DNA of 63,034 bases, counting the filler, from Folioceros fuciformis (taxonomy: Eukaryota), in NCBI GenBank assembly GCA_049999805.1. It is 8 parts of 8 records of this genome, joined end to end, with 100 filler letters (N's around TTAATTAATTAA, not from the genome) between each part and the next. Parts side by side here need not be neighbours in the genome. Positions count along the whole stretch, not along the records: positions 30,044 to 36,840 come from JBNGIO010005860.1; 7 more parts are not named here. The stretch is one strand, 5' to 3'. The position numbers and the translations under genes are program-made. Below the pieces are notes generated by a model, which made no database searches, had not been told where the DNA came from, and saw only the letters and a list, made by a program, of their open reading frames with translations. Shown here piece by piece: positions 1,827 to 60,310 of this stretch (position 1 is the stretch's first letter; each line of letters begins with the position of its first letter).

Positions 1827-2119
1827 TGTTGAGTTATCGAGCTCTATATGAGCTAAACTCATGTGGTGTTAGTTATACCAGTTGGGTTCATACTAGACTA
1901 GTTCTAGTTATTAGTGAACTTAGGATAGTGTAGATTATCCCATATTGAACCTGGAAGTTGTGTAGCCCTAAATGTACTACTTAAATGGAGACCTCGGACC
2001 TCCATAGTAAGACAGTGGTGATGTGTATTGTTTTTTTGGTTGTGATCACCAATACCACCCTCTCTTCTCTCCTCTCCTCTCCTACACTTGCACGTAGATT
2101 GGAGTCGATCCTATTGACA
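1827..2119 (+). repeat. copia-A 5' LTR
   Basis: Direct repeat of 6991-7283, TGTTGAG...TTGACA. Confidence 0.95.
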
Positions 2120-2682
2120 TAGTATTAGAGCCCGGTGCAGGCGGTGCAAGATCGGCGTAGGAGGTGCTGCAAGAGGCAGCAAGAGTGCACACCAGAAGCT
2201 AGAGCAGCTACGAGAAGTTGGAGCAGCTTGGAGGGAGATCGGCAGCAAGCGTCCCGGCAGCTAACTCTCATATCGGTGTGTGCAGGAAGTGAGGAGAAGG
2301 GCGACAAGGCCCTGTCAGCTTACTGGACTAGCTGTTGATCCCCAGAGCTCTGTGGAAGGGCTGACAAGTGGAGGCAACAGCTGCAATAGCCTCAGCAGCT
2401 GCAAGAAAGTGTGCTAACCCTAGCTTGGCAGCAGGGAAGGAATTGACAGGAAATCTCACGGGAGCTTTGTGGGCAGACAGTCAAGAGTCTGTAAGGACAC
2501 GGAGCATGAGACAATCTGGTTCACGCAAGGCAGCGTGATTCCGCACCAGATTGCTCTTAGGAAGAAGAGACTTAAGGTCTTGTGAGTAAAACTCCAGTCA
2601 GAAGCAGTCTGGTTCTTTCAGACATTTATCAAGTGTGAGTACTCAAAAAAGGATTGAGTGTCAACCTTGAGTGGTGGCAAGA

Positions 2683-5600: not shown

Positions 5601-6977
5601 CAAACACAACGCAGATGGTAGTATCAACAGGTACAAGGCAAGGCTTGTGGCCAAGGGATATGCCCAGACATATGGAATAGATTTTGAGGAGACGTTCAGT
5701 CCAGTTGCCAAAATGGCAACAATTCGAACCGTGATCGCACTAGCGGCATCGAAAGGTTGGGTCCTACATCATATGGATGTGAAGAATGCGTTTTTACATG
5801 GAGAATTGCTGGAAGAAGTATACATGGACCAGCCACCAGGTTATGAGGATTTGGATCATCCAAATCATGTGTGCAAGCTGAAAAAAACGTTGTACGGACT
5901 GAAGCAAGCCCCGAGGGCTTGGCATGAGCGTCTTGCTCAGCATCTGATTCACATCGGATTCAACATGGCAGATGCGGATCATTCGTTGTATGTGTGCAAA
6001 AGTACAAAACGACTGGTCTTTGTGACCATTTATGTGGATGATCTAATCATTGGAGGTAATCAGTTGGATCAAGTGGAGCAGATCAAGGAACTTCTACAAC
6101 AAGAGTTCAAGATGGCGGACCTAGGTGAACTGAGGTTCTTTTTGGGCATTGAAATTATACGAACCAACACAGGCATTTGGCTGTCACAGCGGAAGTATGC
6201 GTCGGATGTACTAACTAAGTATGGTATGGTTGAGTGCAAGCCAATCTCGATTCCTTTGGATCAAAATCTAAAGCTCAGTGCTCATGATGGTGAAGCACTT
6301 GAAGATCCAACAATGTACAGGAAGATTGTGGGTAGCTTGATATATCTCACTCTATCCCGACCAGATTTGAACTATACAGTGGGATTGCAAAGTCAGTTTA
6401 TGCAGGCGCCAAGAAAGCCACATTTGGATGCAGTAAGGCAAACGTTGCGCTATGTGAAGGCAACTATGGATCATGCTCTCTTTTATGTTGCAGATTAGAA
6501 ATAAACCTGTGTGGGTACACAGATGCAGATTGGGCAGGCAGTGTTACTGATCGTAGATCTACAAGTGGATTCATTTTTTCACTTGGGAGTGCAGCAATTA
6601 CATGGAGTAGCAAGAAGCAGCCTACAGTGGCTTTGTCTAGTACAGAAGCTGAATACAGAGGCGCAGCAATGGCAGCGTGTGAAGTGACTTGGATTTGTAA
6701 GTTACTCGGAGATTTTGGATTGCAGGTCAACGACAAGGTTGTTATCTACTGTGACCATCTTAGCAGCATACAGTTGGCGCAAAACCCAGTGTTTCATGCC
6801 AGGACAAAACACATTGAAATACATTATCATTTTCTTCGCGAAAGGATTTTATCTGGAGCTATTGATCTTGTGTATGTCAACACAGACGAGCAGATAGCCG
6901 ATATATTTACTAAGCCAATGGGAGCAGAGAAGCTGAAGAAATTCCGAGCTATGTTAGGCGTACAGATGCTATGTTGA
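2683..6977 (+). pseudogene. copia-A gag-pol polyprotein, disrupted
   Basis: UBN2-type gag, CCHC knuckle CWTCGRLDHFERDC, protease VDSGAS, WHKRIGH/CEAC, integrase core, RT YVDD, RNase H. Stops at 3190, 5539 and 5587, a frameshift near 6495, and an integrase D->Y change (HSYVWGP). Confidence 0.95.
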
Positions 6978-6990
6978 GCTCGAGGGGGAG

Positions 6991-7283
6991 TGTTGAGTTA
7001 TCGAGCTCTATATGAGCTAAACTCATGTGGTGTTAGTTATCCCAGTTGGGTTCATACTAGACTAGTTCTAGTTATTAGTGAACTTAGGATAGTGTAGATT
7101 ATCCCATATTGAACCTGGAAGTTGTGTAGCCCTAAATGTACTACTTAAATGGAGACCTCGGACCTTCATAGCAAGACAGTGGTGATGTGTATTGTTTTCA
7201 TGGTTGTGATCACCAATACCACCCTCTCTTCTCTCCTTTCCTCTCCTACACTTGCACGTAGATTGGAGTCGATCCTATTGACA
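6991..7283 (+). repeat. copia-A 3' LTR
   Basis: Direct repeat of 1827-2119, preceded by the PPT. Confidence 0.95.
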
Positions 7284-10923: not shown

Positions 10924-13900
10924 TGTGGAGACCACATGGTAGATAGGCCTCTTAGAAAATGGGTGGTATACTTTTTTTTTGGAGTTTTGATAGAATTCCT
11001 CGAAGAGGTAATTAGGAAACTATGTTAGATAAGGCTAGATTAAATAGGATGATCAGGAGATAGTGGTGGTGCAGTTTAGAAAGTCAACAATCGTCTAGCT
11101 AACCCGTGGCCGTGGAAAATGTGAAGTAGGGGGTAGGGTGTGCCCGTGGAGAGGGACGCCAGTGTGTGTGGAGCCCTAAGTTGGGCGTGTGAGGGCAAGT
11201 TGTGGCCCCGGGAGCGTGCGAAAGGGGTTGGGCATAGACATGGGGGTGGGGTGCTTAGACTTGCCATGACCTTGCCCAGGTGCGCTGAGGGTTGAGAATC
11301 CTGAGAGCAAGCAGCTGGACAAGCCAGGATTAGGGCTAGGCTTGGCCGGATCCTGGTTGGCAAGTGGGTCGACCTGTTGCTATGGTGGATTCCGACAGGC
11401 CGGCTGTTCGGCTAGCCATGCTGTACGGCTGGCTGAAGCTAGAAGAGGGGGCGGTGTGAACCCCGTCGGATCTCTGAAGGCAAGGTCAGCGCCAGTGGCC
11501 GTGATCAAGGTTGTTGGCCTAGGTCATGGCGAGCGAGCGGCAGGTCGGGTAAGCGGCGGCGCTGTGTAGTTGGTCGAGGCCCGGCTGAGGACCCGGCGGG
11601 GTCTAGCAGGCAGGTGGCGGCGCGGATCCTGCCAGACGGCTGCAAGCAAGCAGCCCAGTACCGGTTGCAGACGGGTAGCTTGGTCTGGCTACAGGCCGCC
11701 ACCCACTGCAGGAAGGCAGCCTCGCAGCAACAGTAGGGACAGGGTGGTGTGTGGTTTTGGCAAGAGGGTAGATTCGACTAGGCAACCAGCGGGTTGGGGG
11801 AAGTCCTGGCCGGAGGGAGTGTCGGATCGGCAGGCTGGCTGCCTACCAGATCCGGAAGGCAAGAGGCCGGTTTGCGGCCTTTGGGGATGGAGGAGCCAGG
11901 CGGCAGCACTGGATCTGTGGGTGTACCAGGCTGGCAGGCAGGTTGGTCGACCAGATGGGCAGTCTGCCTGGGGGAGCCGGCCAGCCGGGGTGCAAGCGGC
12001 CTGGCTGGGTGCTCGGGGCTAGAGGATGGCGGCCAGTTGGAAGGGGTCCTGGCAGGGGAAAGCCTGGCCGAATCGGCGAGGTGGCCACCAGGAGGCTAGC
12101 ACGCTAGCCGGGTTGGCTGATTGGTTGCGGTTGGAGGTGGCCTAGCAGGGCCTTGGAGGACGGCCGGGCTAGCAGCAGCGCGGCTGCAGGTGGGCAGCCG
12201 GTGGGAGACCTGCTGGCTGGCAGGCAAACCTACCAGGCTAGTCGGATCCCGAAGCCAGGCAGCGGCCTGGCTGGCTGTCTTAGCCAGGCAGTCACCCGGC
12301 CTGCAGGCAGCCGGGTAGATCCAGATCCAGGCTGGTCGGGACTGGGGCTGGATCCGGAGGTTACCAGGCAGGCCGGCAGCACAGGCAAGCTAGGGGCGGC
12401 GCCGAATCCTGGCGGGCTGTGGCTGGTCCTGGAGCCAGGCAAGCGGCTGGCTGCTGAGGAGTAGGCAGGTAGCCGGGCTAGGCAGCAAGCATGCAGCCCC
12501 GCATCGGTGGAGGTAGGCCAGATGGGGGCAAGGCGCTCCGAGGGGCTGTGGCAAGTCTCCGGGGCAGTCTATGGCAGACCGGTGGCCAGCTGGTGGTCTA
12601 GCGGGCTTTTAAGGAGCCTAGTCAACAGCCCAGCGTTCTAGGCAGCTAGGCTGGGCAGGCTGGCTGGCTAGCCGGATCTGGAAGGCAGACAGCCAGACAG
12701 GCTGCTGGAGCATGGCCAGGCAGCCAGGCAAGGTTGCCAGATCCAAGTAGATGCTGGCCGGATGGCCAAACAAACCATCCCGGCCTAGGCAGTAGGAGGT
12801 CGGCGGAGCTAGGCCAAAGCCAGGAAGGCTGGCAGCTGGCCGGATTCGAACCAGCAGCGCAGGCAGGCCAAGTGGGTGTGGTCGGCCTGGCGGGACGCTG
12901 GAGGCGGGCTGTCAGCAGGGCGCTCTGGGCATGGCAGGCCGCATGACGGCGAGTAAGCCGGATCCGCAAGGGTGGCAGGCTGGGAGCCTGATATGGGCTA
13001 CGGCGGCTGGCCAGCGGGCTCAAGCGGCCCCCTAGCTGGATCAGATGGCATGCTGGCTGCGGCTGGTTGAGCTGGGGCCAAGCAGCCGCTGGGCAGCTGG
13101 CGGCCGGCTGGGGGAAGTTCAGGCGGGGGGGAATCCTAGCAGGTGGCTGGCCTAGCAGCAGTTGGTTGAGGAGCGGGCAGCCCAGCCCGGCCAGGCAGTC
13201 AGGCAAGGCTGCCAGATCCAGGAGGCGGCCAGAGTCCGGGTCGCAAGTGGCCGAATCCAGGCAAACAGGGGGTCGCGCATCCATGCTAGTGCAAGCGAAT
13301 TGAAACCAGACAGGCGACTGGCTGCAGGGGGCAAGATGTGGTGGAGGCAGGTAGGCTGGTGGAGGCCGGGTAGAGCAGGCCGGCTTGCGGGCAGCTTGGC
13401 TGGTCGACGAGTAGACCGGCTGCAGGGGAATTCAGCCAGATAGCCGGGCCGATCCGGTTGGCTGGCAAGCGAATCCAAGCCCGGCCGGATCGCTAAGGAT
13501 GGACGGGGCCGGGATGGCAGGATCCAAGCAACCATGGCAGGCTAGCCGGGATCGCGTTTGGCAGGTTGGTTGGCTAGAAGGCACTGAGAGGCTTGGATCG
13601 GGATCTAAGAAGGCGGCTGCTAAGCGGGCGGACTGGATCCAAGTGGTTGGCTAGCCTAAGCAGATGGCGTAGCCAGGCTGCAGGACGGCTAGGCAGCCAG
13701 GCAAGGCTGCCGGGTCCTGGGAGGCGGGGCTAGAAGTTGGGGATTCAGGGACAAGGTGGAGGGGAAGCAGCTCGAGTCTGGCTCCGGCTCGAGTCATGCT
13801 TCGAGCAGGGAGGCTACGGTGGTGTGGACAAAGGTCGGGGGCGCAGCCCGCCAGGTGAATGCGTGTAGACAAAGCTGAGGGACCTACAAACTGCCCCGTC

Positions 13901-15221
13901 CAAGCGAAAAGCCTAGTACAGGCGTGTTGCTAGCGGGTGGGAAGCCTAGTGATAGTTATGTTGTCAGAGATGGTGGATTGTCGCTTCGAGTGCCAAGCTT
14001 ACAAGGTGCCCACTCAGGGGCACTAGATGAGTAGCTCTGCTGGGTCATGGGCCTTGGCCAGCAGAATGGAGGGAAGGATCGGAAGAAGATGGAGATTCTG
14101 AAGGGTTGAGGGTGATCTGAGGGAAAGGGATGATCCGGGAAGAGAGTGTCGAGAGGAACTCGTAAATTTTGGTAGTTTGGAGAGGTTGATTAATTTTGAT
14201 AGGAGCAACCAGGGCTGCAAGTCGGGGGCAGGTTAGGTCAGAGTTAGCGTTAGGATTAGGTCGGAGTTAGGTTTAGGGTTTTGACGAGTGGAGGGTTCTG
14301 TCTGAGGCGCGCTGACCTGGTTAGGCAGTGACAGGGGTTCCTGGCCAAGGGGGTATAAGAGGCCAGGCCACTCATTGAGGGGAGAGGCTTTTTTTTGGTG
14401 AGAGCTCCCTTGACCTTGTGTGCAGGCTGCTGGGTTAGAGGTTTAACCCAGTGTGCAGATGTGCCTCGGCCTTAATTCCCCATGCCACTAGGGGAACGTG
14501 GCGGCTCCCAAAATCGCCGAGATCTGGGTGGCCAGATCCGCAGGGGCTGACCTTTCTTGCATGCTGGTTGGGTGGTTGGGTACGTTGACGTCCCTAAGGG
14601 GTTTCCAAGGCAACGGATTGTAGGGCTGTGAGCCAAGGAGGCTATCCAGCCTGGGTCTGCACATCCCTGCCTCAAGGACTGCAAGTGAGGGGCTGCTGTG
14701 TTTCAAAATCCAGGAGTGAGACGTGATGGTGAAGGATTGAAGAGTTGGAGTGCTGGAATAGAGGTTTGAAGTGCTGGAGAAGTGCTAGAGTAGAGACTTG
14801 AAGTGCTGGAGTATAGAGTTGTTGTGCTGAGGTGAGGAGCTTAGGTGCTGAAGTTCTCAATCAGCTGCTGAGGTCGCTGGCATTTAGGACTGAGAGTGGA
14901 GGTTGAGGCCAGGGCTGGAACCTCCTCTCAGCTACTGAGGCGGCTAATACCTGGAGCTAGGAGTGGGAGCTGAAGATGATGCTGAGTCCTCATTCAACTG
15001 GGGTTGTAGTTGGTGTTGACGACAGGGTTCTAATCTTTTTGCTGTAGTGTGGTTAGGTCTAGGAGCCGGCTGATTGATAAGATTAGATTAGGGTAGAGTG
15101 GGGGATATTGTAGGAAACCTTGACACTGGTTCACTCCCTTGGGAGCGAATCCTAGTACTACGACGATAATAAAGGGGAAGTGTGGCCCTTGGTGGTTCTT
15201 GGGTGCAAGTTCCACTCCACA
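10924..15221 (+). repeat. ~4.3 kb 3' LTR of the Athila-like element
   Basis: Starts TGTGGAG after the PPT and ends CTCCACA (7-bp terminal inverted repeat). The end is confirmed by the homologous copy at 721, which abuts a PBS. Confidence 0.8.
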
Positions 15222-18166: not shown

Positions 18167-18266
18167 NNNNNNNNNNNNNNNNNNNNNNNNNNNNNNNNNN
18201 NNNNNNNNNNTTAATTAATTAANNNNNNNNNNNNNNNNNNNNNNNNNNNNNNNNNNNNNNNNNNNN
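18167..18266. other. Artificial contig spacer N44-TTAATTAATTAA-N44 (also at 29944-30043, 36841-36940, 48527-48626, 52578-52677, 56906-57005, 59624-59723)
   Basis: Identical 100-nt construct with stops in all six frames, repeated seven times. Confidence 0.97.
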
Positions 18267-22350: not shown

Positions 22351-23420
22351 CGTTATCGCGTGTCGCAGTCCTGTTCATGTGTGTGATTGTGGTTGACAAC
22401 TTTTGTTACCAGGGCATGGCAAGTGGAAATGGGGAAGCTTACAGGCCTCAGCTGCTTGCAGTAGTGTAGGGTACAAAGCTTACAGGTAAATCTGGCTCCT
22501 TCAGATTGAGCTGGATCAACGCAAGGCCGTCGCCTCCTGATGATGTTTATGGTGAAGCATACTTGTAACAGCTGATCGCGATGGTCCCGTAGCTGATTCA
22601 GATGATGGGCATCAAACCTTAGCACAACGCAGTTCGTTCCTGTAACATGTACGACTCCTCTGCAATGTGCATAGCAATCTAGCTGCACAGGCTCCAGCTG
22701 TGCATAACGAAACGGGCCTTGCTTCCAATTCAACGAAAGGGGCAAGCTCGCCTCGTGGACGGTGGGGTGTACTCTCGTTGCTTGATGCCCTCACACGGCA
22801 AAGGAACTGTCTCCGTTGGAGTCAGAGGTGAATGCTGGTGGTCCATGACAGGTACTTGTCTTTCTCGCTCTCTCAGGGCATCTCATTTTCCCGTTGGCCA
22901 CCGGCCTCTCGCCGTATCGGGAGGAAGCCATGAAGGAACCTGTTGATACCTGTGACCCAATGCCAGCCTTGGATTGATGATGTCATCGACGGACGGGAAG
23001 TGGTACAGGCTCCGTTAATTGGCTGATAAAAGACAACGGCGGCGCCCACATTTCAGGGTCCCCAGAGTTGGGTCCCCGTCCGTCAGGGGCTTTCGCACAG
23101 TTTCTTGCCAGCCGTTGTGGGACCGCGACCGCAGAGGAGCGAGTCGCGTGGGGCCGTGGGCCCGGGGGCCCGGCGTCCATCTGTTCCGGCCCGGACGCCT
23201 CCCGAGCGGAGGGCCGGCCTCTACCCTCCCCTTCCGCCTCGGGTTTTCACCTTGGTTCCAGCTTCCTTCGTCTCTCGCACCGGGCGAGCCATGGCGGATG
23301 AGGTGAGGTTGTGGGTGGAGGCCAGAGAGGCGGTGGAGCATGCGGATCAGGAGAGGAAGTGGAAGAGGAAGGTGGGCGAAGAGGATGAAGAGGTAGAGGC
23401 GCACAGCCCCTTCCTCGTTA

Positions 23421-25980
23421 GCTACGGCCAACCCTGCGTGCTCCAAGTTGTGGGCTTTATCGTTGAAGAAGAACTTCGTTGTCAGTGATAAAGCCTACCA
23501 CTTGGAGTACGCAGGGAACGCCAGGATTCATGGACGCTGGGAACGCTGAAGGTCTCACGCTCTCATTGTTGGGAGCTCATGGACTTTGACCACTTCCTCG
23601 ACGAGTTTGGGAGAATGCCGTCGAGAGAAATCTTGAGCCTCGTCACCAACGTTGCAGCGATAGCCAGCGTGGTTCCCACGAAGTCAAGCCTCCAGCTCTC
23701 CTCTCTTCGGTTACAAGTTTAACAAGTTTCTCGATGGTCGCTTTTGGCTTTTTCGTGGAGTTGATGTGGGTGCTCTGTATGCCGCTCTCTGTTCTGCTCT
23801 TTCAGAGTATCATTTGTGTATTCTGCGTGCTTGCAAGAGATGGACATTTTCGGAGTTCCGTTTGTGTGGTGCTGACCCGCGTGCGTTTGAGATTGACTGT
23901 TTCGGAGTTCAAGTGCGAGTGCGTACGCGCGCGGGCTGAACCCTGTGACTTACCTGTCCAAGGCATGAGATCGGTGCTAGCGCTTGTGCTTGCAGCCGCG
24001 TTGCCCTGCCCTGCTGAAAGAGCTTGCTTAACTGCGAGCCTTATGCGCGCCTGCACATGTGAATACGTTTTCTGTGCTCGGCAAAAACTGTTGCAGCCCA
24101 GCTGGAGCTCCAGTCATGGCTTACGTGCTTGTGACGTATGTGATTGAACCTGTACATGTGTGTAACGTTGCTCGCGCGTGCACTTGAATGTACCTCCATC
24201 CTGCTGCGCTCCAAGCCCTTCTAATGACCATAACAAGCTTGTTACTTCGAGCCTGGAGCTTGGGCTTAACTTGAAACTTGGATCTGGCCGATAGCAACGT
24301 CGCGCGGGCGTCAGTCGCCCGATATCTTTACTTGGCGATAATAGTGCAGCTCGAACTTTTGCTTCTCAACTTTCCCTGTTGGGTGCTGTGGATGTGTTTG
24401 CACGCGTGCAGGTGTCGATGTCCCGCCTGCCCCCAAAGGATTGCGAAGTTTGTGTTCTTGTACGTCTTGGAAATCTTCCCCGGTTGTGCAACACCAGGTT
24501 CAGGATTTTACTTCATTCTGTGAGTTCTTTTGTGGATTGTTCCTTCTGCTCGTTTTTGCCCTGCCCGGGTTGTGTGCTCAACGTCTCTTCTCTCGGTTGC
24601 TTTTCATATGATGTCACTGTCACTGCTTATGTCGCCAATCTGTTCTGTTACAGGTGAGGCTGTGTTAGAGACAGAAGAACTTATCCTGTGTCTTTGCCAT
24701 GCAGGTGCATACACTTTGAGCACGCTTCGTCGAGAAGATGATGTGGATTATAGTTCAGCCATTGTCCTCAATAGACAAAAACGCTAACTGTGCGTGGTTA
24801 CACTCCCTCTCCGGCAAGGAGAATCAAGCCTCTTCTCACGCTTATGGAGTTGGGGATCGGATCCAGTAAATTAAATGTAGCAAGGTATGGTTCGTAGCTG
24901 CCCATTTATNNNNNNNNNNNNNNNNNNNNNNNNNNNNNGTACAGCAGGTTCTCTGCCTTATTCCAGCAGTGTCTTGTCTTCGCAGCCTGACTTCCTTCGA
25001 TTTGCGTTTGGTGTAGCGTTTGCTGGCTTTGTTGTAGCCGAGATGGTCAGGGTAAGTGTGTTTCTTCCGAGCGTTTGTGTGAGTTGGTGTCTAACTTGAC
25101 GTGGTAGCTAAGAGCCTTCCCTTGCTACATTTATTTGCAGGTTTGGCGGTTACCTCCAGTAGGGGAATGGGTACACCATGGTGCTCATGAATGGTCTGAC
25201 AACAATCAATAGTCCTCCTTCGCTACGGCAAACCCTGCGTGCTCCAAGTTGTGGGCTTTATCGTTGACGAAGAACTTCGTTGTCAATGATAAAGCCTACC
25301 ACTCGGAGCACGCAGGGAACGCCAGGATTAATGGACGCTGGCAACGGTGAAGGACTCAAGGTCTCGACATTGGGAACTCATGGACTTTGACCACTTCCCC
25401 GACAAGTTGGGGAGGATGCCCTTGGGTTGCAATCGCTCGCTGTTTAAAAGTTTCGCAAATTCTCGGTGCAGGCATTTTCCTGCTTCTTGGAGTTGCTGTG
25501 GGTGCTCTGGATGCCGCTCTCTGCTCTGCTCCTTCAGAGCAGCATGTGTGTGTTCTGCGTGCTTTCAAGAGATGACAGTTTGGGAGTTTCGTTTGTGTGG
25601 TGCTGACTCGCGTGCGTTTGAATCGACTGTTTCGGGAGATCATGTGTGTGTGTGTGTGTGCGTACTCGCGCGCGCTTAAGCCTGTGACCCAGCTGTCCAA
25701 GGTATGAGATTGATGCTTGTGCTTCCGGGCGCATTGCCCTGCTGAAAGAGCTGGCTTAGCTGCGAGCCTTAGGCGCGCCTGTACATGTGAATCCGTTTTC
25801 TGTGTTGGGGAAAAACTGTTGCAGCCCAGCTGGAGCTCCAGTAATGGCTTATGTGCTTGTGACGTACGTGATTGAACCTGTACATGTGTGTGACGTTGCT
25901 CGCGCATGCACTTGAATGTACCTGCATCCTGCTTCGCTCCACGGCCTTCCAATGACCAGAACAAGCTTGTCACTTTGAGA
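23421..25980 (+). repeat. ~800-bp segmental duplication (23421-~24250 and 25222-~25980) containing decayed coding-like sequence
   Basis: Colinear copies starting gctacggc(c/a)aaccctgcgtgctccaagttgtggg and ending near acaagcttgt. Confidence 0.85.
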
Positions 25981-26356: not shown

Positions 26357-28425
26357 GGTTACGAAATCAAGGATCCAGGCCTTTATAAGGAGGTCATACA
26401 ATGTGCTCCGATTATGAAATCAAGGATCTCGGATTTTATAAGGTCAGATAATGTGCTAAAGTTTTTTCAATTATGAAATCAAGGATCTAGGCCTTTATAA
26501 GAGGTCATACAATGTTCCCACACACGGATCTAGGCTTTTATAAAAAGATCATATAATGTTCCCACACAAGAATCTAGGCCTTTATAAAGAGGTCATATAA
26601 TGTTCCGAATCTAGGCNNNNNNNNNNGAATCTAGGCCTTTATAAAGAGGTCATATAATGTTCCGAATCTAGGCCTTTATAAAGAGGTCATATAATGTTCC
26701 GACACAGGGACATAAGTGTGCTAAGCACACTTCTACAACAAGATGGCATACAAGCCTACACACAAGTATATAATACCCTTGGATAAGCTAGGCCTTTATA
26801 AGGTCCTAGGCCTTCCATGCTATTGGTCCTTGACTTGCCCTTGTGGGCTTCACTTTAGCTTGCCTCTTCAAGAAGATGCTCCTTTGTCTTTATCTAGAAG
26901 ACGTTTTCTAGTTCTTATCATGAAAAACATGTTTAGGGCATCTTTCATGCAAATTACTTTAGGGTACTCTTCATTAACTAATTTTGATGTATTGTAATAA
27001 ACCATTTCTAACACTCCCACTCAACAAATGAAAATTAGTCCTTCAACCCAAGCATCTTATTCTTCATGAGTGAGTTATACTCACTATCCAGAGCTCATCT
27101 CCACTCCTTTGCCTTTGGTCCTTCCAACGCTTTCTTCAATCTTTGTAGTTCATCGACCTTTGCTAACAAAGCCACTTCATACTTACATGCGTTTATGGAC
27201 TCCAATATCTTGTGCGAAGGTTTCCATCGCCTTGCTGATCTTCTAAGTTGGGTTAGTGGTTCCTCTTGGATTCTTCGATCTTGCTCCTCTTCATCATCTT
27301 CGACGCTTCGAGTTTCTTCATCTCCTTTGTCGTCTTGATGTCGAGGTTGCTTACCCTCTAGAGTAGGTTGAGTTTGCTCTAGAGTATGTTGTTCAGGCAT
27401 CAAGTCTAGAGGAACTTCATCTAGTTGCCACAACTCCTCGGCAACAACTTGAGTTGCTCGCACTGGTTTGTTAGGTTCCACAATTTCACGAAAAACAACA
27501 TATCTACTGAAGATGATCTTCTTGGTAGAAATGCTATACAACCTATACCCTTTTACCTCATCGGAGTACCCAAGCATGATGCATTGGGTGCTTTTAGGAT
27601 CCCACTTGGTTCAGTTCTACTTCGGAACATGAGCATCAACCACAGAACCAAAAATCCTAGGGACATCACACAAGTAGGTCCCATTAGAAGGGAAAACACA
27701 CAAGTAGGTCCTATTAGAAGGGGCAACACACAAGTAGGTCCTATTATAAGGGACAACACACAAGTAGGTCCTATTAGAAGAGACAACACACAAGTAGGTC
27801 CTATTAGAAGGGACAACACACCAGTAGGTCCTATTAGAAGGGACAACACACTAATAGGTCCTATTAGAAGTGACAACACGCTAGTAGGTCCTAAGTTGCT
27901 GTAACAACAGCCTCTCCCTAAAAATGTACCTCCAACCCACTTTGATGGAGCATGCATTTTGCCACTTCCACCAGGCTTCTTAGCTTGCGCTCCGCTACTC
28001 CATTTTGCTCTAGTGTGTGAGGAATTGTGAGTTGTCTCCGAATACCACACTCCTTGCAAAAGCTTTTGAATTGAGACGAGATATACTCCCCTCCATTGTC
28101 ACTTCTCAGAGTCTTAAGGCATTCTCCACTCTTGTTTTCCACCAAGGCATCCGGGATCGCATCTTGAATGTGTTGACGATGCTCAAGGCTAAGAGCTATG
28201 CAATTGTGCACAAACTCTCACAAGCACAAGGCTAAGAGTTTGGCTATTGCACACAAGTTCTCACAAGCACAAAGCTAAGAACCATGCAATAAGACTTGAC
28301 TCAAGCATCCAACTAGGAGAAGTCTACAAGGCATTAGAACATGGCTCTGATACCATGTTAAGAAACCAAGGATCTAGGCCGTGTATGACCTCTCTATAAA
28401 GGCCTAGATCCTTGGTTTCCTAATA
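26357..28425 (-). mobile_element. Internally deleted (non-autonomous) Ty1/copia derivative
   Basis: PBS TGGTATCAGAGC at 28344-28355, integrase remnant (LRSDNGGEY...QNGVAER) and SH3-like remnant, PPT GAGTGGGAG at 27014-27022, 3' LTR ~26357-27013. RT and RNase H are missing. Confidence 0.85.
27662..27893. repeat. 30-bp tandem repeat, about 8 copies
   Basis: Unit ~GACAACACACAAGTAGGTCCTATTAGAAGG. Confidence 0.92.
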
Positions 28426-28543
28426 AAGCCCATGTGAACTTTTCTTCGAAATCGAATAGCGACATGCTGCTGTGCCTACCTAGGAACACGTCATTCGTAT
28501 TGGGCACAAGTTCATGCTCCATGCTTGCCCGTGCTTAATCAAC

Positions 28544-28713
28544 CTCTTCGAAACTCAATATCTTTACAACACTTCGACTCCAATTACTCTTCGAAACTCA
28601 ATATCTTTACAACGCTTCGACTCCAATTACTCTTTGAAACTCAATATCTTTACAACGCTTTGACTGCAATTACTCTTCGAAACTCAATATCTTTACAACG
28701 CTTCGACTACAAT
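28544..28713. repeat. 43-bp tandem repeat, about 4 copies
   Basis: Unit CTCTTCGAAACTCAATATCTTTACAACGCTTCGACTCCAATTA. Confidence 0.9.
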
Positions 28714-30043
28714 TTCTCAAAGTGTTTCGGACCACCGTGTCTGGCTGGCTCGGAATGTTGTCGGTTGCTTCCGGGGTGCTTTCGTTGGTCCAACCCGAAC
28801 ACAAGAACACCATGTCCTCAGCTCTAGCCCCTTCATGACACTATATATGGCATGCTGTCAAAGACAACATTGCTTCCTCCCCTTGTCCAATCAGCCAGCC
28901 ATACCAAGAGGTCAACTGCTTCTATCCACAGCCTCTACCACAACTTGGCCGATTCTATCTCCAGCGCGTTGGCCAACTCTAGGATCGTCCTTTCAGCAAA
29001 GAACAGCCGTGAATAATCTGGCATTACTCACTTCCGCTGCGCCTCCTAGGTTTGTCGATTGATCTTGGTTGTTGACTTCGTTGTCTTGGCTATCAACATT
29101 GAAGGGAGTGGATTGCCTAATGTGTCTGATTTGGATCACCTTCCTCTCTTTGATTTCACATAACACACGTATAGCGTTCTCCCTTAGCTACCTTTGTTGG
29201 GATTCTTCTGGCCGTGCTCACATAGACATCTACCAATCCACCCTAGACCCTGCGTGCTCCACCTTATCTTCGCTCCTTCTTCTTAATGGCCGCCGCCCAA
29301 TCGTATTGTCCTTCGCCTCTCTATGGCGACGTTATTAGTTTTCTGGCTTAGCTTGACCTCATCCATATTTGACTTGACCATTATTAATTTTTTGGCTTAC
29401 CTTGACCTCATCTATATTTGACTTGATCAACACCGCTGCCAGCCGTCACTGCCCTCATTCTGCTCATTCACCATTGCATGACAGGGACCGCATTTTCAAA
29501 AATGCAATCTTAAAATTCTATGAATGTGTACAAATTCTGAACAATATTGAAGTGTTGTGTGCAGTCACTTCTAACATGACTTACTCGTGTATAATTTATC
29601 CTTTTCAATATAGTTTTTTTAGTGTTTGAAAGACAGTATTTGGTGAATTGATATGTTGAATGAAATTATAGAACAAATAAAAAGAATTGTCTTATCTTAC
29701 AAATTGTTTTTGTTCTTCTATATAAGATATAGCTTGGTTAAACACTTTGCATCTTTAAACAATTAAAATAGATTATCCATTCTTAACCAGGGTATACGTA
29801 TTCACATAGATCTTTCATGCTTCCTTCGCCTTAGGCCAGGTTTACACTAGGGTGGTCATGACCACCCTGTCAGGAAATGGGGAGGCGGGATTGGGTGGTG
29901 CGTGTAAAGCCCTTGTACACTGCACGGTCATCCCATGGTGATANNNNNNNNNNNNNNNNNNNNNNNNNNNNNNNNNNNNNNNNNNNNTTAATTAATTAAN
30001 NNNNNNNNNNNNNNNNNNNNNNNNNNNNNNNNNNNNNNNNNNN

Positions 30044-33000
30044 GCTATCTTACACCTTAGAACCTTTGGATGCATAGCTTATGCATTTATCCCAAAGAAG
30101 AAACGTCCTAAGTTAGTTGCTAAAGCCAAGAAATATCTTATGATAGGCTACACTAAAGGTATAAAAGCATATAAATTATATGATGTACCTGAGAACACTG
30201 TGGTTTATGCCTGCAGTGTTACTTTTGATGAACAACAAGTTTGGCAGCCAGTGGGAGCTTCTCCCACTTCTTCAGACAACTTTGATTTATCTGCTCTGCC
30301 TAACATCACTGTTTTCCCTGATTACCCTAATGAGGAGTTTGCTCCTGAAAGGGGGGGAAGACAACAAGCACAGTGATAATGAGGATAATCAGCAGGAAGC
30401 TGCAGATGCTGAACTTGATTTTGCTGCTGCTATTCAGCACCAACCTCCTCATGCCTTTTCGGATCCTGAACCCATTGTTCCAGCAGAGGTTGACCTTGAT
30501 CCTGATCCTGCTGTTCTTGTGGATAGTGATCCTGAGAATATTCCAGCTCCTATTGAAGAGCCAGCTCCTATCCCTATGCGTCGTTATCCTGCAAGAGACA
30601 GACGTGCACCAGATTATTGTCAATCACAAGACTTTAGGGGACCTTCCATACATGCAGTTGATCTTGATCCTGTGGAACCTCAGAATTATGAAGAAGCCTT
30701 AAGTCGCCCTGACGCTACTGAATGGAAGAAGGCCATTCAATCTGAATATGATTCTTTGATAAAAAATGGAACATGGGAGTTAACTAAACTACCTCCAGGA
30801 CGCAAGCCAACATCTTGCAAATGGGTGTTTAAGCTAAAGGTCAAGGCAGATGGTACCTTTGATCGCTATAAAGCCAGGCTTGTAGCCAGAGGCTTTTCTC
30901 AAATACCGGGCCTTGACTACCTTCAAACTTATGCTCCTGTTGTTAAGCTGGCCACATTTCGCACTATCTATGCATTGGCAGCACACAATGATTATGAGTT
31001 GGACATGTTTGATGTGAAGACAGCCTTCTTACATGGAAAGGTGGATACAGAAATTTATATGCAACAGCCACAAGGATACGAGGTGAAAGGGAAAGAAAAA
31101 TATGTCTTACGTTTAATCAAGACCCTGTATGGTCTAAAACAATCAACTCTTGAATGGAATGTTGTCCTGGATGAAGAGCTGTGAGCGTTAGGCTTTGTCA
31201 GATGTCTCAGATGGGAGCTTATATGTATACAGGACAAATGAAGTGGTTTGTTACCTGGCAGTATACGTTGACGACCTCATATTGGCTTGTAACAGTCCCA
31301 CCTTCATCAAAGACATGAACAAGCTATTATCAACCAAATTTGAAATGACACACTTAGGTGCCTTACAAAGCTGTCTTGGTATTCTAATTCAGCGTGATAG
31401 AAAGAAGAGAACTATCTCATTAACACAGCCACGTTACCTTCTTAGTAGTGCGGAACAACTTGGATTGAAGGATGCTAAACCTTCTGCAACTCCTTTGCCT
31501 TGTGGACTGAAGATGAGTAAAACCATGTGTCCTGATACACAATTAGAAAAAATGAAGATGAGTTTAGTCCCTTACAGACAAGGTGTAGGCAAACTCATAT
31601 ATGCAGCTAACACCACTAGGCCAGAAGTAGCTTATGCTACTAGTGTCTTATCACAGTATCTGGAAAACCAAGGGCAAACACACTGGACAGGTGTTAAGAG
31701 AGTTTTCAGGTATTTGAAAGGAACTCACAGCATTGGTGTAAAATACAAGCACATACCTGGAGTGCCCTTACATCTTGATGTCTATACAGATTCAGACTAT
31801 GCTGGAGATATAGACACAAGGAAATCAATTTCTGGTTATGTTGTTATGTTGGCTGGAGGACCCATTTGCTGGTCCAGCAAGAAACAGCCTACTATAGCCC
31901 TATCTAGCACTGAAGCAGAATATTGGGTACTTACAGCTGCTGCAAAGGAGATAGCTTGGTGCAAGCTGATGTTCAAGGAACTTGGAATTCCCCTTCCAGC
32001 CTGCACCACAATCCACACAGATAACCAAGGGTCAATGAGCTTGGCACATAATCCTATTTTTCACTCCAGGACTAAACATGTGGAAGTTGAGTATCACTTT
32101 ATACGTGACCTCATCAAGTCTGGAGATATCAACCTTGAATATGTGCCTACGTCTGAAAATCCAGCAGACATTTTAACCAAGGCCCTAGGAAGGGAGCTAC
32201 ATGAAAAACAAATGAGAGTACTTGGCATGGGAAGCCATGAAGGCAATCCCACTACCATGTCTAAGCCCTAACCTACCAGGCTATTCATAACCCCAATCAG
32301 GACTATCATCATTGTCTGAATCTCCAGGAGGAGATTTAAAAGAACCCCTATTGTCTGAGGTGGTGGAATCACCAAGCTTCTCCCATGAAGCATATTCCAC
32401 AGTGTCAGAGGAAAAGACTTCATTCTCCAAACGAGGAGACTATCTCTTCTTCCTCTCCTTGTAGGAGATTCTGTCCTTAGATTCCAAGCTTTGCTCCTCC
32501 TCCAGTCGCTCTTCAAACCCTGTGAGGAGACAGTGGGAGCAAAGTCAGACAAGTGATGATAATCAGTAGGGGGTTAGGAAACAATTATGCCACAAGCTAC
32601 CATCAGCAAGAGGCTTACTGTAGAAGCTGATCATGTGGCCTTTACACTCCAAAAACATTTCAACCCTCACTCTCTTCATGGTGATGCCAGAAACTTGGCA
32701 CTTGTACCACAGCGGGCTGCCCGACACTTCCCAAGTACCAGGTGTGATCACCTTGGTCTTTGACATGACGTTGGGTGGAACTGGAGGACGTTGGTCAACA
32801 CCTTCGTACTGGAACTCACCTCGATTGAAGCGCCTCTGTTCCACAACAGCCCGTGAGTACACGAGCTCAGGAATGCGGCTCCTGGATAGGCCACCCATAG
32901 CCCCGGCTCTCGAAGATTCGGCAGTCCTAGCCGCCGTCCTCCCTCGTGCTGTGCCTGAACCTTTGCCCGCATCCACAGCACCTGAAGAACGTGTTGCTGG

Positions 33001-33814
33001 AGTTGCTGTAATTTGGCCACCAGTCTTCCCACCTCTGATGCTGGAAAGACGAAAGCTTGGAGGGGAGACGGAGAGTCCGGATGTCGCGATGTCGCGCCGC
33101 TAGCTCAAGCTTGCTCTGGTAGTGCCTCACGGCCGCCCCCGCGGTCTCCTAACGCCGCTAGCTCCTCCTCCTCGTGTGTGTGTCTCTGGCTGCTGTGCAG
33201 GTTGATGCTCTTCCGCCCGTGCTCCGATGGCAGTTGTTCTAGCCATAGGCGATGTGATGAACCTTCCTGCAGAGTCCCGCTGGTATGTGCACCGCTTGGC
33301 TGCTAGAGGATCATCAGACCCTGAAGACGCCATGGTTACTTTCCTCAGCCTTCTCTCAACGACCTTTATTGCCAGAAGGCATGGGACGTAAATAGCAGCT
33401 ACAAGAAGTGCGAACCTGTAGACGGTCGCCTTCACACACAGCAGCACCACCTTGAGCCTACGCCTCAAAGTACACACAAGGATCGCGAGGTTCTCAGCTG
33501 GAGTCACAGTCTCCACAACTCTGAACGTAGTGGAGGGGAGGCAAACCGACCCCATAATGATTAACAAGTGGGAGTGATGAGAATAGGGTGTTAATACATT
33601 AGGTTTTGTTTCGTGAATGCGTTCATAGCTACTATAAGTCTAGGTGCCCGTTCATTTGGGTTACGTCCTTTATGAAAGGGTGTGTCTATTCACCCTACCT
33701 AGCTTAAGTTCAGTTATTTGTCTATGCTGTATATAATTATTGTTTAATCAATATAATAATGTAATTGTTTTATAGCAATTGGTCTACACCAATTTCCATA
33801 TTTTCTCAACTTCA
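30044..33814 (+). mobile_element. Ty1/copia element (copia-B), 3' half: integrase C-terminus, RT, RNase H, 1.3-kb 3' region, PPT, 3' LTR
   Basis: [20 protein letters not shown]; pol ends at 32271; PPT AAGTGGGAG at 33566-33574; LTR ~33575-33814 (TGA...TCA) abuts the gag of the next element. Confidence 0.9.
32281..33333 (-). pseudogene. Antisense two-exon accessory gene of copia-B (exons 33333-32619 and 32519-32281); AT-hook-containing protein of ~317 aa
   Basis: ACCATGG start; one continuous frame with three premature stops, each one C->T from CGA or CAG; donor TACA|GTAAGC, acceptor CTCCTCACAG|GG, 99-nt phase-1 intron; exon 2 is in frame to a TAG 10 bp from the pol stop. Confidence 0.65.
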
Positions 33815-36800
33815 ATATTCGAAGGCAAACACGATCTCACAAGTTGCTGCAGATTACAAGCTGAGGTCTCTCTGCATGCGGGAAGGAGACTCAGCAGAAA
33901 AGTACATCAGTACATTCAGAGCAGCTAGAAATATGTTACATGCTGCAGGCGATGTAATATCTGATTTTCAGGCTGGTGCTATTTTTCTGAACTCCCTTTC
34001 ACCAGCATACCGCTCCTTTGTATCAACTCAAAACCAAGTGGTGAGAGAGGCTGAGACTAGGGTAAGGGGCATTGGAAATCCACCTGTGTTGGACTTGAGT
34101 GAAATCTTCGGAGCATTCATGCAAGAGGAAGCACATATGGAGGGCCTCCAACAAAGTCATGGAAGAGATAAAGCTCATGCTTTGTATGCTGAAAAGGGGA
34201 AATTTAAGAAGAAGTGGGGAGGAAAACCGTACTCACCTACAAAACCTAGAGGAGCTGAATCCTCAAAGAAACGGCCTGGAAATTGCAGATGGTGTGGTCT
34301 TCCAAATCACTGGGAGCGGGAATGCAGGAAAAAGGCTAATGGAGAACCTAGAAAGGAGTTGGCACCAAGCTCTCATGTAGCTGTGAAGAAGACTACAAAA
34401 GGCACACATGTGATACTTACAATGTGTCTTGCCAGCTCATCATCAGCGAAGCAGAACTTTTGGTTTTTGGACTCGGGTGCCACAGCGCACATTTGTCACA
34501 ACAAGCTATTTTTCTCATCCTATGAGGAGTCTCAACCTGGACAATTTGTCCTGCTGGGCGATGAGAGTGGACTAGCTATAAAAGGACAGGGTAGTGTCCC
34601 TGTTGAAATGGCTGATGGTATCATTGTTGTGCTAGAGGATGTTCTTCATGTCCCTGCCATGACAAAACGCCTTTTATCAGTTAGGCAGCTCTGCAAAGAA
34701 GGTGTGCACACAGTTCAATTCACTGACAATGACTGCGAAATTTGCATGAAGGACTCTGATCTTGTAGTGACAAGGGGCACCGAGCAAAGTGAGCTGTATA
34801 AGCTAGATCTTCGACCTCTTCATCCCTTGAAGAAGTCTATTCATACAGTTGATGCGGCGACTGCGGAATTTCTTCTTGTGGAAGCACATCAAGGATCATT
34901 TGAGGGCCAGACTAGTTCTCAAGCAAAGAACACAAAGTTGTGGCATTTACGTCTAGGGCATCCTCATGCACAGAGACTATATAAGCTTCCTTCTAGTAGC
35001 CTGTACAGAGATGGGATTAAGGAGACTTTATCAGATCTACCTCTGTGCGAAGCATGCGTTTTTGGCAAGCAACATGAGCTTCCTTTTAAGAACAAGGCTC
35101 CTGAACGTGCCCTAGAAGTGCTGGAGCTTGTACATGCTGATATCTGTGGGCCCATTTCAGGGAAATCTTTCAGTGGTGCAGAATTTTTCATATCATTCAT
35201 TGATGACTTCTTGAGATATACACACACATACATACTCTGGAAGAAGTTAGATGTTTATGATGTCTTTGTGGAATATCTTGCATTGGTGGAACGTCAAACT
35301 GGAAAGAAGTTGAAGAAGCTGCACACAGACAACGGTGGAGAGTTTACTTCTAGGTTTACCCAATACTGTGGTGAGGTTGGTATCCAACAGCAGTTTACAG
35401 TTGTTTACAATTCCTAGCAAAATGGAGTTGTGGAAAGAAGTCATAGACGTAAGTAGGACGCAGCCAAAAGCATGCTCTACGCAGCAGGCCTGCCTATTCA
35501 ATTTTGGGCTGAGGCAATTATGTGTGCTACTTATCTCCAAAACAGACTACCTACCTCTGCTGTTGAAGGCAAGACACTGTTTGAGGTCTTTACGAGCAGG
35601 AAACCTTCAGTTGCTCACCTACGCACGTTTGGGTGCACAGCTTACGCGATTCTACACAAGAAGAAGCAACGGAAATTTCAGTTTTCCTCAAGGAAGATGG
35701 TGTTTGTGGGCTACACTGATGGACACAAAGCCTACAATCTCTTCAATCCTGAAACCAGGGAGGTCATCTATGCACGCAGTGTGATTTTTGACAAAGCCAA
35801 GTTGCTCACCAGTTTGGAGTCTCGCACTGCTACTGTTGGTGAGCCTGTGGGAGTCAGCACAGCTGCGGTGCCGGAGGAGATTCCCTTGGAATCCCTTGAA
35901 TGGTGGGAGGAGCAAGTTGTTCATTTTGACCAGTCAGAGGGCTGTGACATTCACCTGCCGTTGGTGGGAGCTTCCTCGCCTGTGGGAGTTTCCTCTACCC
36001 CTGCTCCATCAGGTGATGTATATGCGGATTCAGACAACTCTTTGGAGGATCATGAGGAGGAGAAGCCTGCTCCAGCTGTGGAGCCCCTACCTGTCACGCT
36101 TGCCCTTGTCAGAGCTCCACGGAGGCCTGCACTTGCTGTTGTTCCAACTGAAGGTCTTCGGCACAGCCTTCGCCAACCAGTACCTCGAGTGCGTTTTTCT
36201 CCGGATGACTTTCACATTCGACGGCCTCGAGGTGCTCGGGCTATTAATGACAGGGAGGATGATGGTCCTAATGTAACTGCTGCAAGTACTTCAGCTGAGA
36301 GTGTTGCTAGTCAGGAAGACCTACCTGAGAGTTGCTTCGGACCAGGTGTCGTTGCTAGCCCAAGCTTTGCTAACTGCAACTGCAAATCCGTCCGACCCTG
36401 TGACCTTTGAGCAAGCTTTCACGGGTCCCCATGGGAAAGAGTGGAAAGCTGCAGTTATAGACGAGCTCAAAAGCCTAGAGGAGAACCAAACCTGGATTGT
36501 GTGTGATCTTCCAAGTGACCGCAAGCCAGTTGGTTCCAAATGGGTGTTTAAAACCAAGCTGGATGAACATGCAAACTTGTCCAGATATAAAGCTAGGTTA
36601 GTAGCTCGTGGCTTTACACAAGAAGAAGGATTGGACTACACAGAAAAGTTTGCACCATTGGCAAAATTCCAAACTTTCTGCATTGTCATGGCCATTGCTG
36701 CTCACGAAGACCTAGAAATTCATCAGCTTGATGTTAAAACAACTTTCTTACATGGCGTGCTAGAAGAAGAAGTATACATGTCACAGCTGCCTGGCTTTGA

Positions 36801-36840
36801 AAAGACTGGAGCTGAACATAAAGTGTGTCGCCTGCACAAG
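33815..36840 (+). mobile_element. Ty1/copia gag-pol fragment (copia-C): gag C-terminus, zinc knuckle, protease, integrase, RT start
   Basis: [52 protein letters not shown]; contains stops and frameshifts. Confidence 0.92.
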
Positions 36841-36940
36841 NNNNNNNNNNNNNNNNNNNNNNNNNNNNNNNNNNNNNNNNNNNNTTAATTAATTAANNNN
36901 NNNNNNNNNNNNNNNNNNNNNNNNNNNNNNNNNNNNNNNN

Positions 36941-48526: not shown

Positions 48527-48626
48527 NNNNNNNNNNNNNNNNNNNNNNNNNNNNNNNNNNNNNNNNNNNNTTAATTAATTAANNNNNNNNNNNNNNNNNN
48601 NNNNNNNNNNNNNNNNNNNNNNNNNN

Positions 48627-52577: not shown

Positions 52578-52677
52578 NNNNNNNNNNNNNNNNNNNNNNN
52601 NNNNNNNNNNNNNNNNNNNNNTTAATTAATTAANNNNNNNNNNNNNNNNNNNNNNNNNNNNNNNNNNNNNNNNNNNN

Positions 52678-56905: not shown

Positions 56906-57005
56906 NNNNNNNNNNNNNNNNNNNNNNNNNNNNNNNNNNNNNNNNNNNNTTAATTAATTAANNNNNNNNNNNNNNNNNNNNNNNNNNNNNNNNNNNNNNN
57001 NNNNN

Positions 57006-59623: not shown

Positions 59624-60310
59624 NNNNNNNNNNNNNNNNNNNNNNNNNNNNNNNNNNNNNNNNNNNNTTAATTAATTAANNNNNNNNNNNNNNNNNNNNN
59701 NNNNNNNNNNNNNNNNNNNNNNNGGTTTGCATCTCCGTATAAGTATAAACCCAAAGAAGTGGAGGAATAGCTGTTGCTCTACATGCGAATTACTTCATGA
59801 GACCAACTATCAGGAGTGGAGCACATGAGAGAGGCAATCGACTAACAGAGTGCAACTAAGCAAGGAATCTTGAGCACAAAACATAAGTTATCCTCTTAGA
59901 CCTATTGTCTAGCCACTGTACTTGATTTGACCAAAATCCTTCTTTCACTACGTTATGTTCAATTGGGGCTGCTGGCATTAGGATGGAAAACGTCAACAAA
60001 AGAGCTTGCCCACATATCTGCACCCTTAGCAACTCATGTTGAGGCGAGCAAATGTTCCCACAACCCACTAATATGGATTCTAGGCTTCCGTCTTAACTCT
60101 CTTTCATAATATTCAATTCATAAAATGTTATGCTAACTAACATTGGATCACACTATTTCTCATCATCATTCATAGAATGAAATACAACCATGCTTTTGAA
60201 TCCAAATCTTTCATCACAACATATGATTAATAACAGTACATTGCAATGCTACATACAAAGTGGCATAGTAAAGCAAACCTATTACATTTCATACTCCTAA
60301 TCTTCGAAAA

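Follow-up and report, generated by a model that had tools for sequence, protein, structure and literature searches.

Here we describe an antisense reading frame that fills almost completely the 1.3-kb gap between pol and the PPT in a retrotransposon of Folioceros fuciformis, and which we tentatively read as the decayed remains of an antisense extra ORF from a Ty1/copia lineage that has been poorly sampled. The element (hereafter copia-B) lies in a window of 63,034 nucleotides, that is, the whole stretch of DNA analysed. Its antisense frame is a single minus-strand frame of 317 codons when two proposed exons are joined, and contains three internal stops. Among LTR retrotransposons, gypsy elements commonly carry extra genes in antisense; a copia element with an antisense intron-bearing gene, if true, would mean that this layout arose independently in the other superfamily. 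For now, the antisense gene is a lead rather than a case, the copy being dead and no listed RNA run carrying the stretch.

What this contig holds of the carrier's Ty1/copia pol is the 3′ half, with the C-terminus of integrase, RT and RNase H (30044..32271, plus strand), delimited by Pfam RVT_2, blastx and a spacer map. Its reverse transcriptase is of the RVT_2 type (Pfam matches of 1.4e-41 and 4e-11), and blastx against copia polyproteins places the C-terminal part of integrase upstream of RT, which is the Ty1/copia order. At its 5′ side pol is cut by the contig edge, inside integrase. Blastx against five relatives reads it in frames 1, 2 and 3, with one frame change between 30373 and 30486 and another near 31200, and without in-frame stops in ~702 codons. 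The last pol ORF (31192-32271) closes with a natural stop ending at 32271, and homology to relatives reaches residues 346-351 of its 359. Because of the three stops in the antisense frame and the two frame changes in pol, this copia-B copy is dead. Matches to pol are spread over plants, arachnids, insects, fungi and one oomycete, none from a named organism exceeding 46% identity; the 33 loci obtained by scanning metagenomes with pol do not exceed 50% identity, and pol identity to the other copias within the window is no more than 33-48%.

Downstream of the gap, a PPT-like purine-rich run, AAGTGGGAGTGATGAGAATAGGG (33566..33588, plus strand, 18/23 purines), is followed by TG at 33589 and falls in a block kept in a diverged sister contig (33539 onward). 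We presume that the 3′ LTR starts here (TGTTAATAC..., 33589..33770, plus strand), with at most 182 nt left and a contig that has no 5′ LTR for comparison. The number of sister contigs is higher in this presumed LTR (4-6 at 33607) than in the stretch (1-3 at 32351 and 33363), as is summed depth. No other copy of the 1.3-kb stretch or of the LTR stub was found within the window. Abutting the stub, and outside the finding, is a different, 5′-truncated copia (33771..36840, plus strand; gag from ~residue 69-102, protease, integrase and RT start, by Pfam and blastx), which shares 72% nucleotide identity with copia-B in the RT motif region.

An intron-containing antisense gene had been predicted in this gap from the sequence. 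On re-reading, all of the sequence features named in that original prediction are present at the positions given there, and the location inside a copia element, between the natural end of pol and the PPT-like run, is borne out. Proposed exon 1 (33333..32619, minus strand) translates into 238 codons plus one base from an ACCATGG start, the ATG lying at 33333-33331 in the context AACCATGGCG, with the motif TATTTA ~60 nt upstream. Its first ~150 residues are rich in A/G/S/R/T and of low complexity, its last ~88 are of ordinary composition, and it is interrupted by TGA at 33129-33127 and TAG at 33102-33100. Proposed exon 2 (32519..32284, minus strand, by translation) adds 78 codons that encode a tail rich in serine and acidic residues. 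It is interrupted by TAG at 32442-32440 and closes with a TAG (32283-32281) that lies 9 nt from the pol stop. Although each internal stop is one C>T away from CGA or CAG, as had been pointed out, this holds for any TGA or TAG and therefore is no evidence.

Between the two exons lies the proposed intron (32520..32618, minus strand, 99 nt, called on sequence), which begins GTAAGC and ends TCTCCTCACAG. Its donor has an A before GTAAGC, with the G at 32618; its acceptor reads CTCCTCACAG followed by GG, with the AG at 32521-32520; and the branch-like motifs CTGAT and CTGAC lie within it, so that the GT..AG ends, pyrimidine tract and branch-like motif of a spliceosomal intron can all be read as GTAAGC...CTGAC...TTTGCTCCCACTGTCTCCTCACAG. 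Such signals are rare: 124.7 kb of strand contain 13 pairs of GTAAG and a pyrimidine-rich CAG/G acceptor at a spacing of 60-300 nt, or ~0.10/kb. The splice signals are where they had been predicted, but their use does not restore a frame: the intron is 33 codons long, therefore both exons share one genomic frame, and removal only takes away two further in-frame TGA codons, at 32565 and 32547, leaving three internal stops instead of five. These well-formed GT..AG signals enclose the one 99-nt segment in the middle of the frame with two stops; the difference in stop density between intron (2/33) and exons (3/316) is not significant (p=0.07). A 1-nt frameshift into an open frame at 32573-32268, considered as a replacement for the intron, was rejected, as exon 2 in the predicted frame has the usual codon-position pattern (G-rich first, A-rich second positions) and shares the genomic frame of exon 1.

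The start is less certain than the original prediction had it. The ATG and its context at 33333 are as described, but this ATG is a candidate start, because the frame stays open for another 102 codons upstream (33334..33639, minus strand; from the ORF list, translation and path test), through the PPT, and has an in-frame ATG at 33555-33553. Starting from this second ATG instead, the frame would occupy the gap as far as the PPT, and would also include a hydrophobic, TM-like segment of the continuation (hydropathy 2.46 over residues 48-66).

The view that the minus frame has coding-like statistics is supported by shuffling and by periodicity. In the best frame, 438 codons contain 6 stops, a count that 7/1000 dinucleotide shuffles equal or better, and a stop-free path from an ATG that allows one GT..AG gap extends over 312 codons, matched by 0/200 shuffles. 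Three-base periodicity is 3.77 in the N-terminal half of exon 1 and 3.94 in exon 2 (0/500 shuffles each), 2.16 in the upstream continuation (6/500) and lacking in the C-terminal part of exon 1 (101/500); as controls, pol gave 9.09 and 3.14, and two non-coding segments 0.14 and 0.83. Tandem repeats are not the source of this periodicity, because TRF gives only a 17-nt repeat in the stretch. The preference for G in first and A in second codon positions is further evidence of a coding origin. In 238 sliding windows, nearly all of those with at most 6 stops are known TE coding sequence. A sense-strand extra ORF was rejected, the plus-strand frames of the stretch having 11-25 stops.

A possible, if rather unlikely, alternative to an antisense ORF is that the 1.3 kb are a non-coding internal spacer, that is, a long 3′ UTR, with a frame and GT..AG signals that arose from composition or chance and were picked out of a 63-kb window. 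The longest open run, 178 codons, is reached by 43/1000 dinucleotide shuffles; five stops remain if no intron is granted; the first 150 residues have the low complexity expected of translated GC-rich DNA; and other stretches with a GC content of 0.52-0.68 have best frames with 4-9 stops. GC-rich non-coding sequence at 11201-14116 likewise has only 4-6 stops. Yet that stop-poor control is without periodicity (0.1-0.5), whereas the two sub-blocks of the antisense frame have it at a level seen in no shuffle and without a tandem repeat, and a spacer also leaves unaccounted for the stop-free path and a frame that reaches from the PPT side to 9 nt from the pol stop.

Searches for relatives of the product also speak for a spacer and against a working gene. 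With the 160-aa open part, HMMER gave 0 matches at E<=0.001 in 1.84 billion representative proteins; a word-indexed protein search with exon 1 and exon 2, X in place of stops, gave none at E<=0.01; and ten readings of the region and its neighbours yielded no Pfam family for the antisense frames. An AlphaFold model, suggested along with the original prediction, gave the product no confident fold (single-sequence AF2, mean pLDDT 37.8), and a PDB sequence search returned no match. In a metagenome scan with the 160-aa piece, 0 of 599 matched pattern stretches encode a relative, and none of the 33 metagenome pol loci resembles the antisense protein (best tblastn E 2.3). At the nucleotide level, an exact 24-mer scan of genome and viral contigs had 0 matches, and the window yielded neither an Rfam family nor a tRNA. 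No RNA run is listed as carrying the stretch, and one RNA run (X4) gave only 4 contigs, 0 of them on 32281-33639.

Contigs from public DNA runs extend the stretch to two further variants of the element, one ~2% different and one alignable in blocks of at least 80% identity only. Since these two carry it, the stretch is not a one-off captured fragment, which was one of the outcomes on which the original prediction was to fall. Near-identical contigs come from run X2 (1057 nt, 32228-33266) and run X1 (480 nt), and a contig of 196 nt from run X3 matches 32973-33168 with 0 differences, including both exon 1 stops. The diverged sister aligns in blocks from 32228 to ~33602, of which those kept include the region of the ATG and TATTTA (33313-33399) and the intron with its acceptor (32431-32613). 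Alignable nucleotides amount to 94/99 in the intron, where the alignment ends 5 nt short of the donor, as against 120/715 (17%) in exon 1 and 89/236 in exon 2. Judged from this alignment, the intron is kept better than its exons, whereas selection on a coding gene should lead to the reverse, and conservation that disregards the exon-intron map is again in keeping with a spacer.

The poor retention of exon 1 between variants also speaks for another explanation, which we regard as improbable: that one founder element captured a host gene fragment, intron included, in reverse within its 3′ internal region, and that the fragment has since decayed as a passenger. Host genes typically have introns that look canonical, as this one does, and starts such as ACCATGG; the coding-like periodicity also fits, and gene capture by LTR retrotransposons is documented (PMC7264820). 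The best pol relatives, 1333-1354 aa on contigs of 4428-4894 nt, leave little room for such a stretch. In-frame stops are more frequent in the antisense frame than in pol (3 in 316 codons vs 0 in ~702; Fisher 0.03), a difference that is not significant with frameshifts counted (0.18). Against capture, no related protein was met in any library, though the host lineage seems poorly sampled; transduced sequences are usually sense and in one or few copies (PMC7264820); and none of the variants seen to span the end of pol lacks the stretch, contig cover being 2-3 at 32132-32271 vs 1-3 at 32351 and 33363. A nested foreign TE as source was rejected, the stretch being common to the sister variants and having no inverted repeats and only two weak 18-nt direct repeats. 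Least likely of all, and by a wide measure improbable, is that the stretch gives rise to a non-coding RNA, antisense and spliced, with a regulatory effect on the element, for instance as dsRNA with the genomic transcript, the frame being a relic or irrelevant: the diverged sister does keep the start region and the intron with its acceptor but not most of the coding sequence, and retrotransposons, copia-type ones included, are reported to have antisense promoters and antisense RNAs that do not code (PMC7264820), yet the periodicity and the stop-poor frame would be left unexplained.

On the reading as a decayed antisense ORF, a transcript may in intact relatives start near or inside the 3′ LTR, run towards pol and lose the 99-nt intron. 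That intron would outlive retrotransposition: in the genomic RNA its ends are CT..AC, which rules out splicing. The product would be mostly disordered, with a basic low-complexity front, a small segment of ordinary composition and an acidic tail, and its likeliest role, by analogy with Grande, RIRE2 and Retand, may be that of an accessory factor that acts in the nucleus or binds nucleic acids; or it could be the antisense RNA, not a protein, that damps the element. To call it a regulator or anti-silencing factor, as in the original prediction, would be pure inference. If a copia gene with an antisense intron is borne out, it would show that reverse placement lets elements retain spliced genes, and the presence or absence of the intron would be a built-in marker of which strand's RNA was copied.

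Among retroviral antisense genes, HTLV-1 HBZ has a spliced transcript that starts in the 3′ LTR. The proposed transcript would resemble it in being antisense, from the 3′ LTR side, spliced and encoding a regulatory protein, but belongs to another class of element, is without homology to it, and is predicted from sequence. On a bolder reading, which we consider doubtful, a copia lineage of an under-sampled host would encode an orphan accessory protein in antisense, by a gene that fills the gap, has its promoter towards the 3′ LTR and keeps its intron through being antisense to the genomic RNA; such a gene would be a copia counterpart both of HBZ-type retroviral antisense genes and of the aORF-3R of gypsy elements. 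An antisense promoter in HTLV is mentioned in PMC7264820. According to PMC7264820 and PMC4093653, extra ORFs that lie in antisense downstream of pol and before the 3′ LTR (aORF-3R) are an established class in Ty3/gypsy, with maize Grande gene23, rice RIRE2, Silene Retand and ORF2 of 15 Phaseolus gypsy families as examples. The present frame is like these in its position before the PPT or 3′ LTR (33333, or 33555, to 32281), its opposite strand, its lack of a recognisable domain and its presence in at least two further variants of the family (PMC7264820; PMC4093653). It differs in having a Ty1/copia rather than a Ty3/gypsy carrier, and in this copy it is not the uninterrupted ORF that characterises the class. 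It also differs in its proposed intron, as none is mentioned for aORF-3R ORFs in PMC7264820 or in the part of PMC4093653 consulted; the word "intron" occurs 0 times in a paper on Retand (PMC11963269). Within the protein libraries searched, no match to Grande, RIRE2 or Phaseolus ORF2 proteins came up.

Among copia families, the excerpted part of PMC4093653 has sense env-like ORFs only, and our literature searches found no description of an antisense intron-bearing extra gene in copia. As in SIRE/Maximus, whose env-like ORFs are sense, the present case is an extra copia ORF between pol and the PPT, but it has the opposite orientation and no detected similarity, its product has a TM-like hydrophobic segment only if the ATG at 33555 is used, and its expression would need a promoter of its own, where theirs uses splicing of the genomic RNA. 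Retention of an intron by an LTR retrotransposon is known from the gypsy element Ogre, where, according to the portion of PMC6317226 consulted, it is sense, lies within gag-pol and is spliced from only some genomic transcripts; the intron proposed here is antisense and would be invisible to splicing of the genomic RNA.

The 1.3 kb between the pol stop and the PPT of a copia element in the window is, in our tentative but preferred reading, occupied by a degenerate copy of an extra ORF, probably with an intron, which a poorly sampled copia family carries in antisense. Since the window consists of eight contigs rather than one locus, joined by N44-TTAATTAATTAA-N44 spacers (18167-18266, 29944-30043, 36841-36940, 48527-48626, 52578-52677, 56906-57005 and 59624-59723), features cannot be linked across the spacers. 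The contig bearing the antisense frame (30044-36840, 6797 nt) opens within a Ty1/copia integrase on the plus strand, followed by RT, RNase H and a stop codon whose last base is 32271. This pol, which has two frame changes and zero in-frame stops, matches RVT_2 in Pfam, and blastx against five relatives agrees on its domains. Homology to relatives extends to residues 346-351 of the last 359; 32271 is therefore the natural pol end. As its best matches are only 33-46% identical and come from plants, arachnids, insects, fungi, an oomycete and metagenome contigs, the lineage labels of plant copia cannot be applied to it.

A purine-rich, PPT-like run lies 1.3 kb past the pol stop (33566-33588), directly followed by the presumed LTR start at 33589 (TGTTAATAC...), a boundary placed on a contig without a 5′ LTR for comparison. 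The presumed LTR breaks off after 182 nt or less, and this stub adjoins a different copia, truncated at its 5′ end and with gag homology from polyprotein residue 69-102 onward (Pfam, blastx). The arrangement at 33589-33816 results either from nesting or truncation or from a chimeric contig. Beyond the stub the second copia is without LTR, PBS and the first 70-100 gag residues, and a sister contig of it departs from the window sequence at 33810.

Direct inspection of the sequence located every feature on which the original prediction of a spliced antisense accessory gene was built. On the minus strand, proposed exon 1 runs from the ACCATGG start at 33333 to 32619, where it meets a candidate donor (A/GTAAGC, 32619/32618); the proposed 99-nt intron (32618-32520) contains the motifs CTGAT and CTGAC together with a pyrimidine tract and ends in CACAG/GG, and a TAG (32283-32281) closes proposed exon 2 (32519-32284), leaving 9 nt to the pol stop. 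Antisense introns are known to survive retrotransposition. This candidate spans 33 codons, with both exons in one genomic frame, and would take out two further in-frame TGA (32565 and 32547). Three internal stops remain among the 317 codons (33129, 33102 and 32442); that each is one C>T change from CGA or CAG is correct and carries no weight, because every TGA or TAG has this property. Upstream of 33333 the open frame continues for 102 codons, over the PPT, to 33639, and includes an in-frame ATG (33555) and, after it, a hydrophobic segment of 19 residues (Kyte-Doolittle 2.46; 33334-33555, minus strand). Counted from this ATG the frame fills nearly the whole gap between pol and PPT; were it used, the product would open with a membrane-type segment and the promoter would have to sit in the LTR.

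A chance frame within a non-coding spacer is the strongest alternative, possible but rather doubtful. The longest open run in 32272-33587 (178 codons) was reached in 43 of 1000 dinucleotide shuffles, and the best frame (6 stops in 438 codons) was equalled in 7 of 1000, with 11-25 stops in the plus-strand frames. A stop-free path of 312 codons, the longest that starts at an ATG when any single GT..AG gap is permitted, was attained in none of 200 shuffles. Three-base periodicity was 3.77 in the N-terminal half of exon 1 and 3.94 in exon 2 (0 of 500 shuffles each), 2.16 in the upstream continuation (6 of 500) and a non-significant 1.11 in the C-terminal part of exon 1 (101 of 500), compared with 9.09 and 3.14 for pol and 0.14 and 0.83 for two non-coding controls. 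Tandem repeats do not cause this signal, as TRF found just one 17-nt repeat. Among 238 sliding windows, nearly every one with at most 6 stops was known TE coding sequence, except for a stretch of GC 0.64-0.68 without periodicity; the antisense region, with 6 stops and a periodicity of 2.5, scores near the bottom of the range for coding sequence. That GC-rich exception (11201-14116) has best frames of 4-6 stops per 438 codons and a periodicity of only 0.1-0.5, and its 261-codon minus-strand ORF at 12646-13431 matched no Pfam family. Donor-acceptor pairs of the candidate's quality number 13 in 124.7 kb of strand, and stop density in the intron (2/33) against the exons (3/316) gives p=0.07. All statistics together make a coding origin of the minus-strand stretch the likelier case, not a proven one. 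With stops in 3 of 316 antisense codons and 0 of about 702 pol codons (p=0.03; not significant, p=0.18, once pol's two frame changes are counted as lesions), constraint on the antisense frame was probably weaker than on pol in the ancestry of this copy.

Contigs from public DNA runs show that the stretch is carried in at least two further element variants. Roughly half of its 31-mers are present in one sample (runs X1 and X2, organism A), which fits a divergence of about 2% from the window. The X2 contig (1057 nt) covers 32228-33266 with 22 differences and 18 gap letters, the X1 contig (480 nt) covers 32228-32707 with 8 differences, and contig cover is 4-6 at the LTR start (33607) and 1-3 over the stretch, as expected of an internal region adjoining an LTR. 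A 196-nt contig from a third run, X3 (organism B), is identical to 32973-33168 and spans both exon-1 stops, which are thus not artefacts of the window assembly. Apart from this piece (100% identical, depth 4.7), X3 is nearly without the first copia and the antisense stretch, and the second copia (33676-36840) has a much greater summed depth there than in X1 and X2. The stretch thus travels with the element, which speaks against a one-off capture. A piece of a host gene, captured and kept as a passenger, seems unlikely, although the contigs of the closest polyproteins are too short to accommodate 1.3 kb, a weak hint that the stretch may not be ancestral.

The original prediction is partly supported, in that the stretch lies within a copia, recurs in sisters and has a coding-like frame, but in a diverged contig the intron is better aligned than the exons. 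At 80% identity or more this contig aligns only over about 32228-32283, 32431-32613, 32702-32766, 33210-33243, 33313-33399 and from 33539 onward, that is, over 94 of 99 intron nt, 120 of 715 exon-1 nt and 89 of 236 exon-2 nt, and stops 5 nt short of the donor; a protein under selection would not be expected to align in this way. No RNA run carrying the stretch was found among the public runs listed. A spliced antisense non-coding RNA appears improbable.

The product, if a protein at all, is an orphan. Searches for relatives of the reconstructed product returned no Pfam family for any reading of the region, no PDB relative and nothing in a word-indexed protein search; for its 160-residue open part, 1.84 billion representatives gave 0 matches at E≤0.001 and metagenome contigs gave no relative. 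None of the 33 metagenome loci with pol relatives (each ≤50% identical) resembles the antisense frame. AF2 without an alignment gave a pLDDT of 37.8. The first 150 residues are rich in A, G, S, R and T, the next 88 are ordinary in composition, and acidic residues and serines abound in the tail.

Extra ORFs that run antisense between pol and the 3′ LTR are known from Grande, whose gene23 has a dedicated promoter, RIRE2, Retand, PvRetro13 and Boty, the main text mentioning no intron in them (PMC7264820). A further paper reports an antisense ORF2 in 15 gypsy families and, in two copia families, an extra ORF in sense (PMC4093653), whereas the copia frame here is antisense. The word "intron" does not occur in PMC11963269, and the passages of PMC6317226 that were covered name just the sense intron of Ogre. 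Searches of open-access papers, in their main text, brought up no description of an intron-bearing antisense ORF in copia.

Elsewhere in the window, a complete-looking copia (1827-7283) has 293-nt LTRs (1827-2119 and 6991-7283) that are 98% identical, and a second copy of it, 98-99% identical, lies on another contig (52678-56905); at most about 15 nt separate the end of its pol from the LTR, and it is thus without an extra region. Tandem arrays occur at 27629-27923 (period 30, about 10 copies, 72-92% identical) and 28501-28758 (period 43, about 5 copies), with no coding sequence recognised nearby in the contig. A direct duplication (23412-24251 and 25213-25979; about 1.73-1.80 kb apart, 83-92% identical, GC 0.52-0.57) may represent LTR-like repeats or a long tandem unit.
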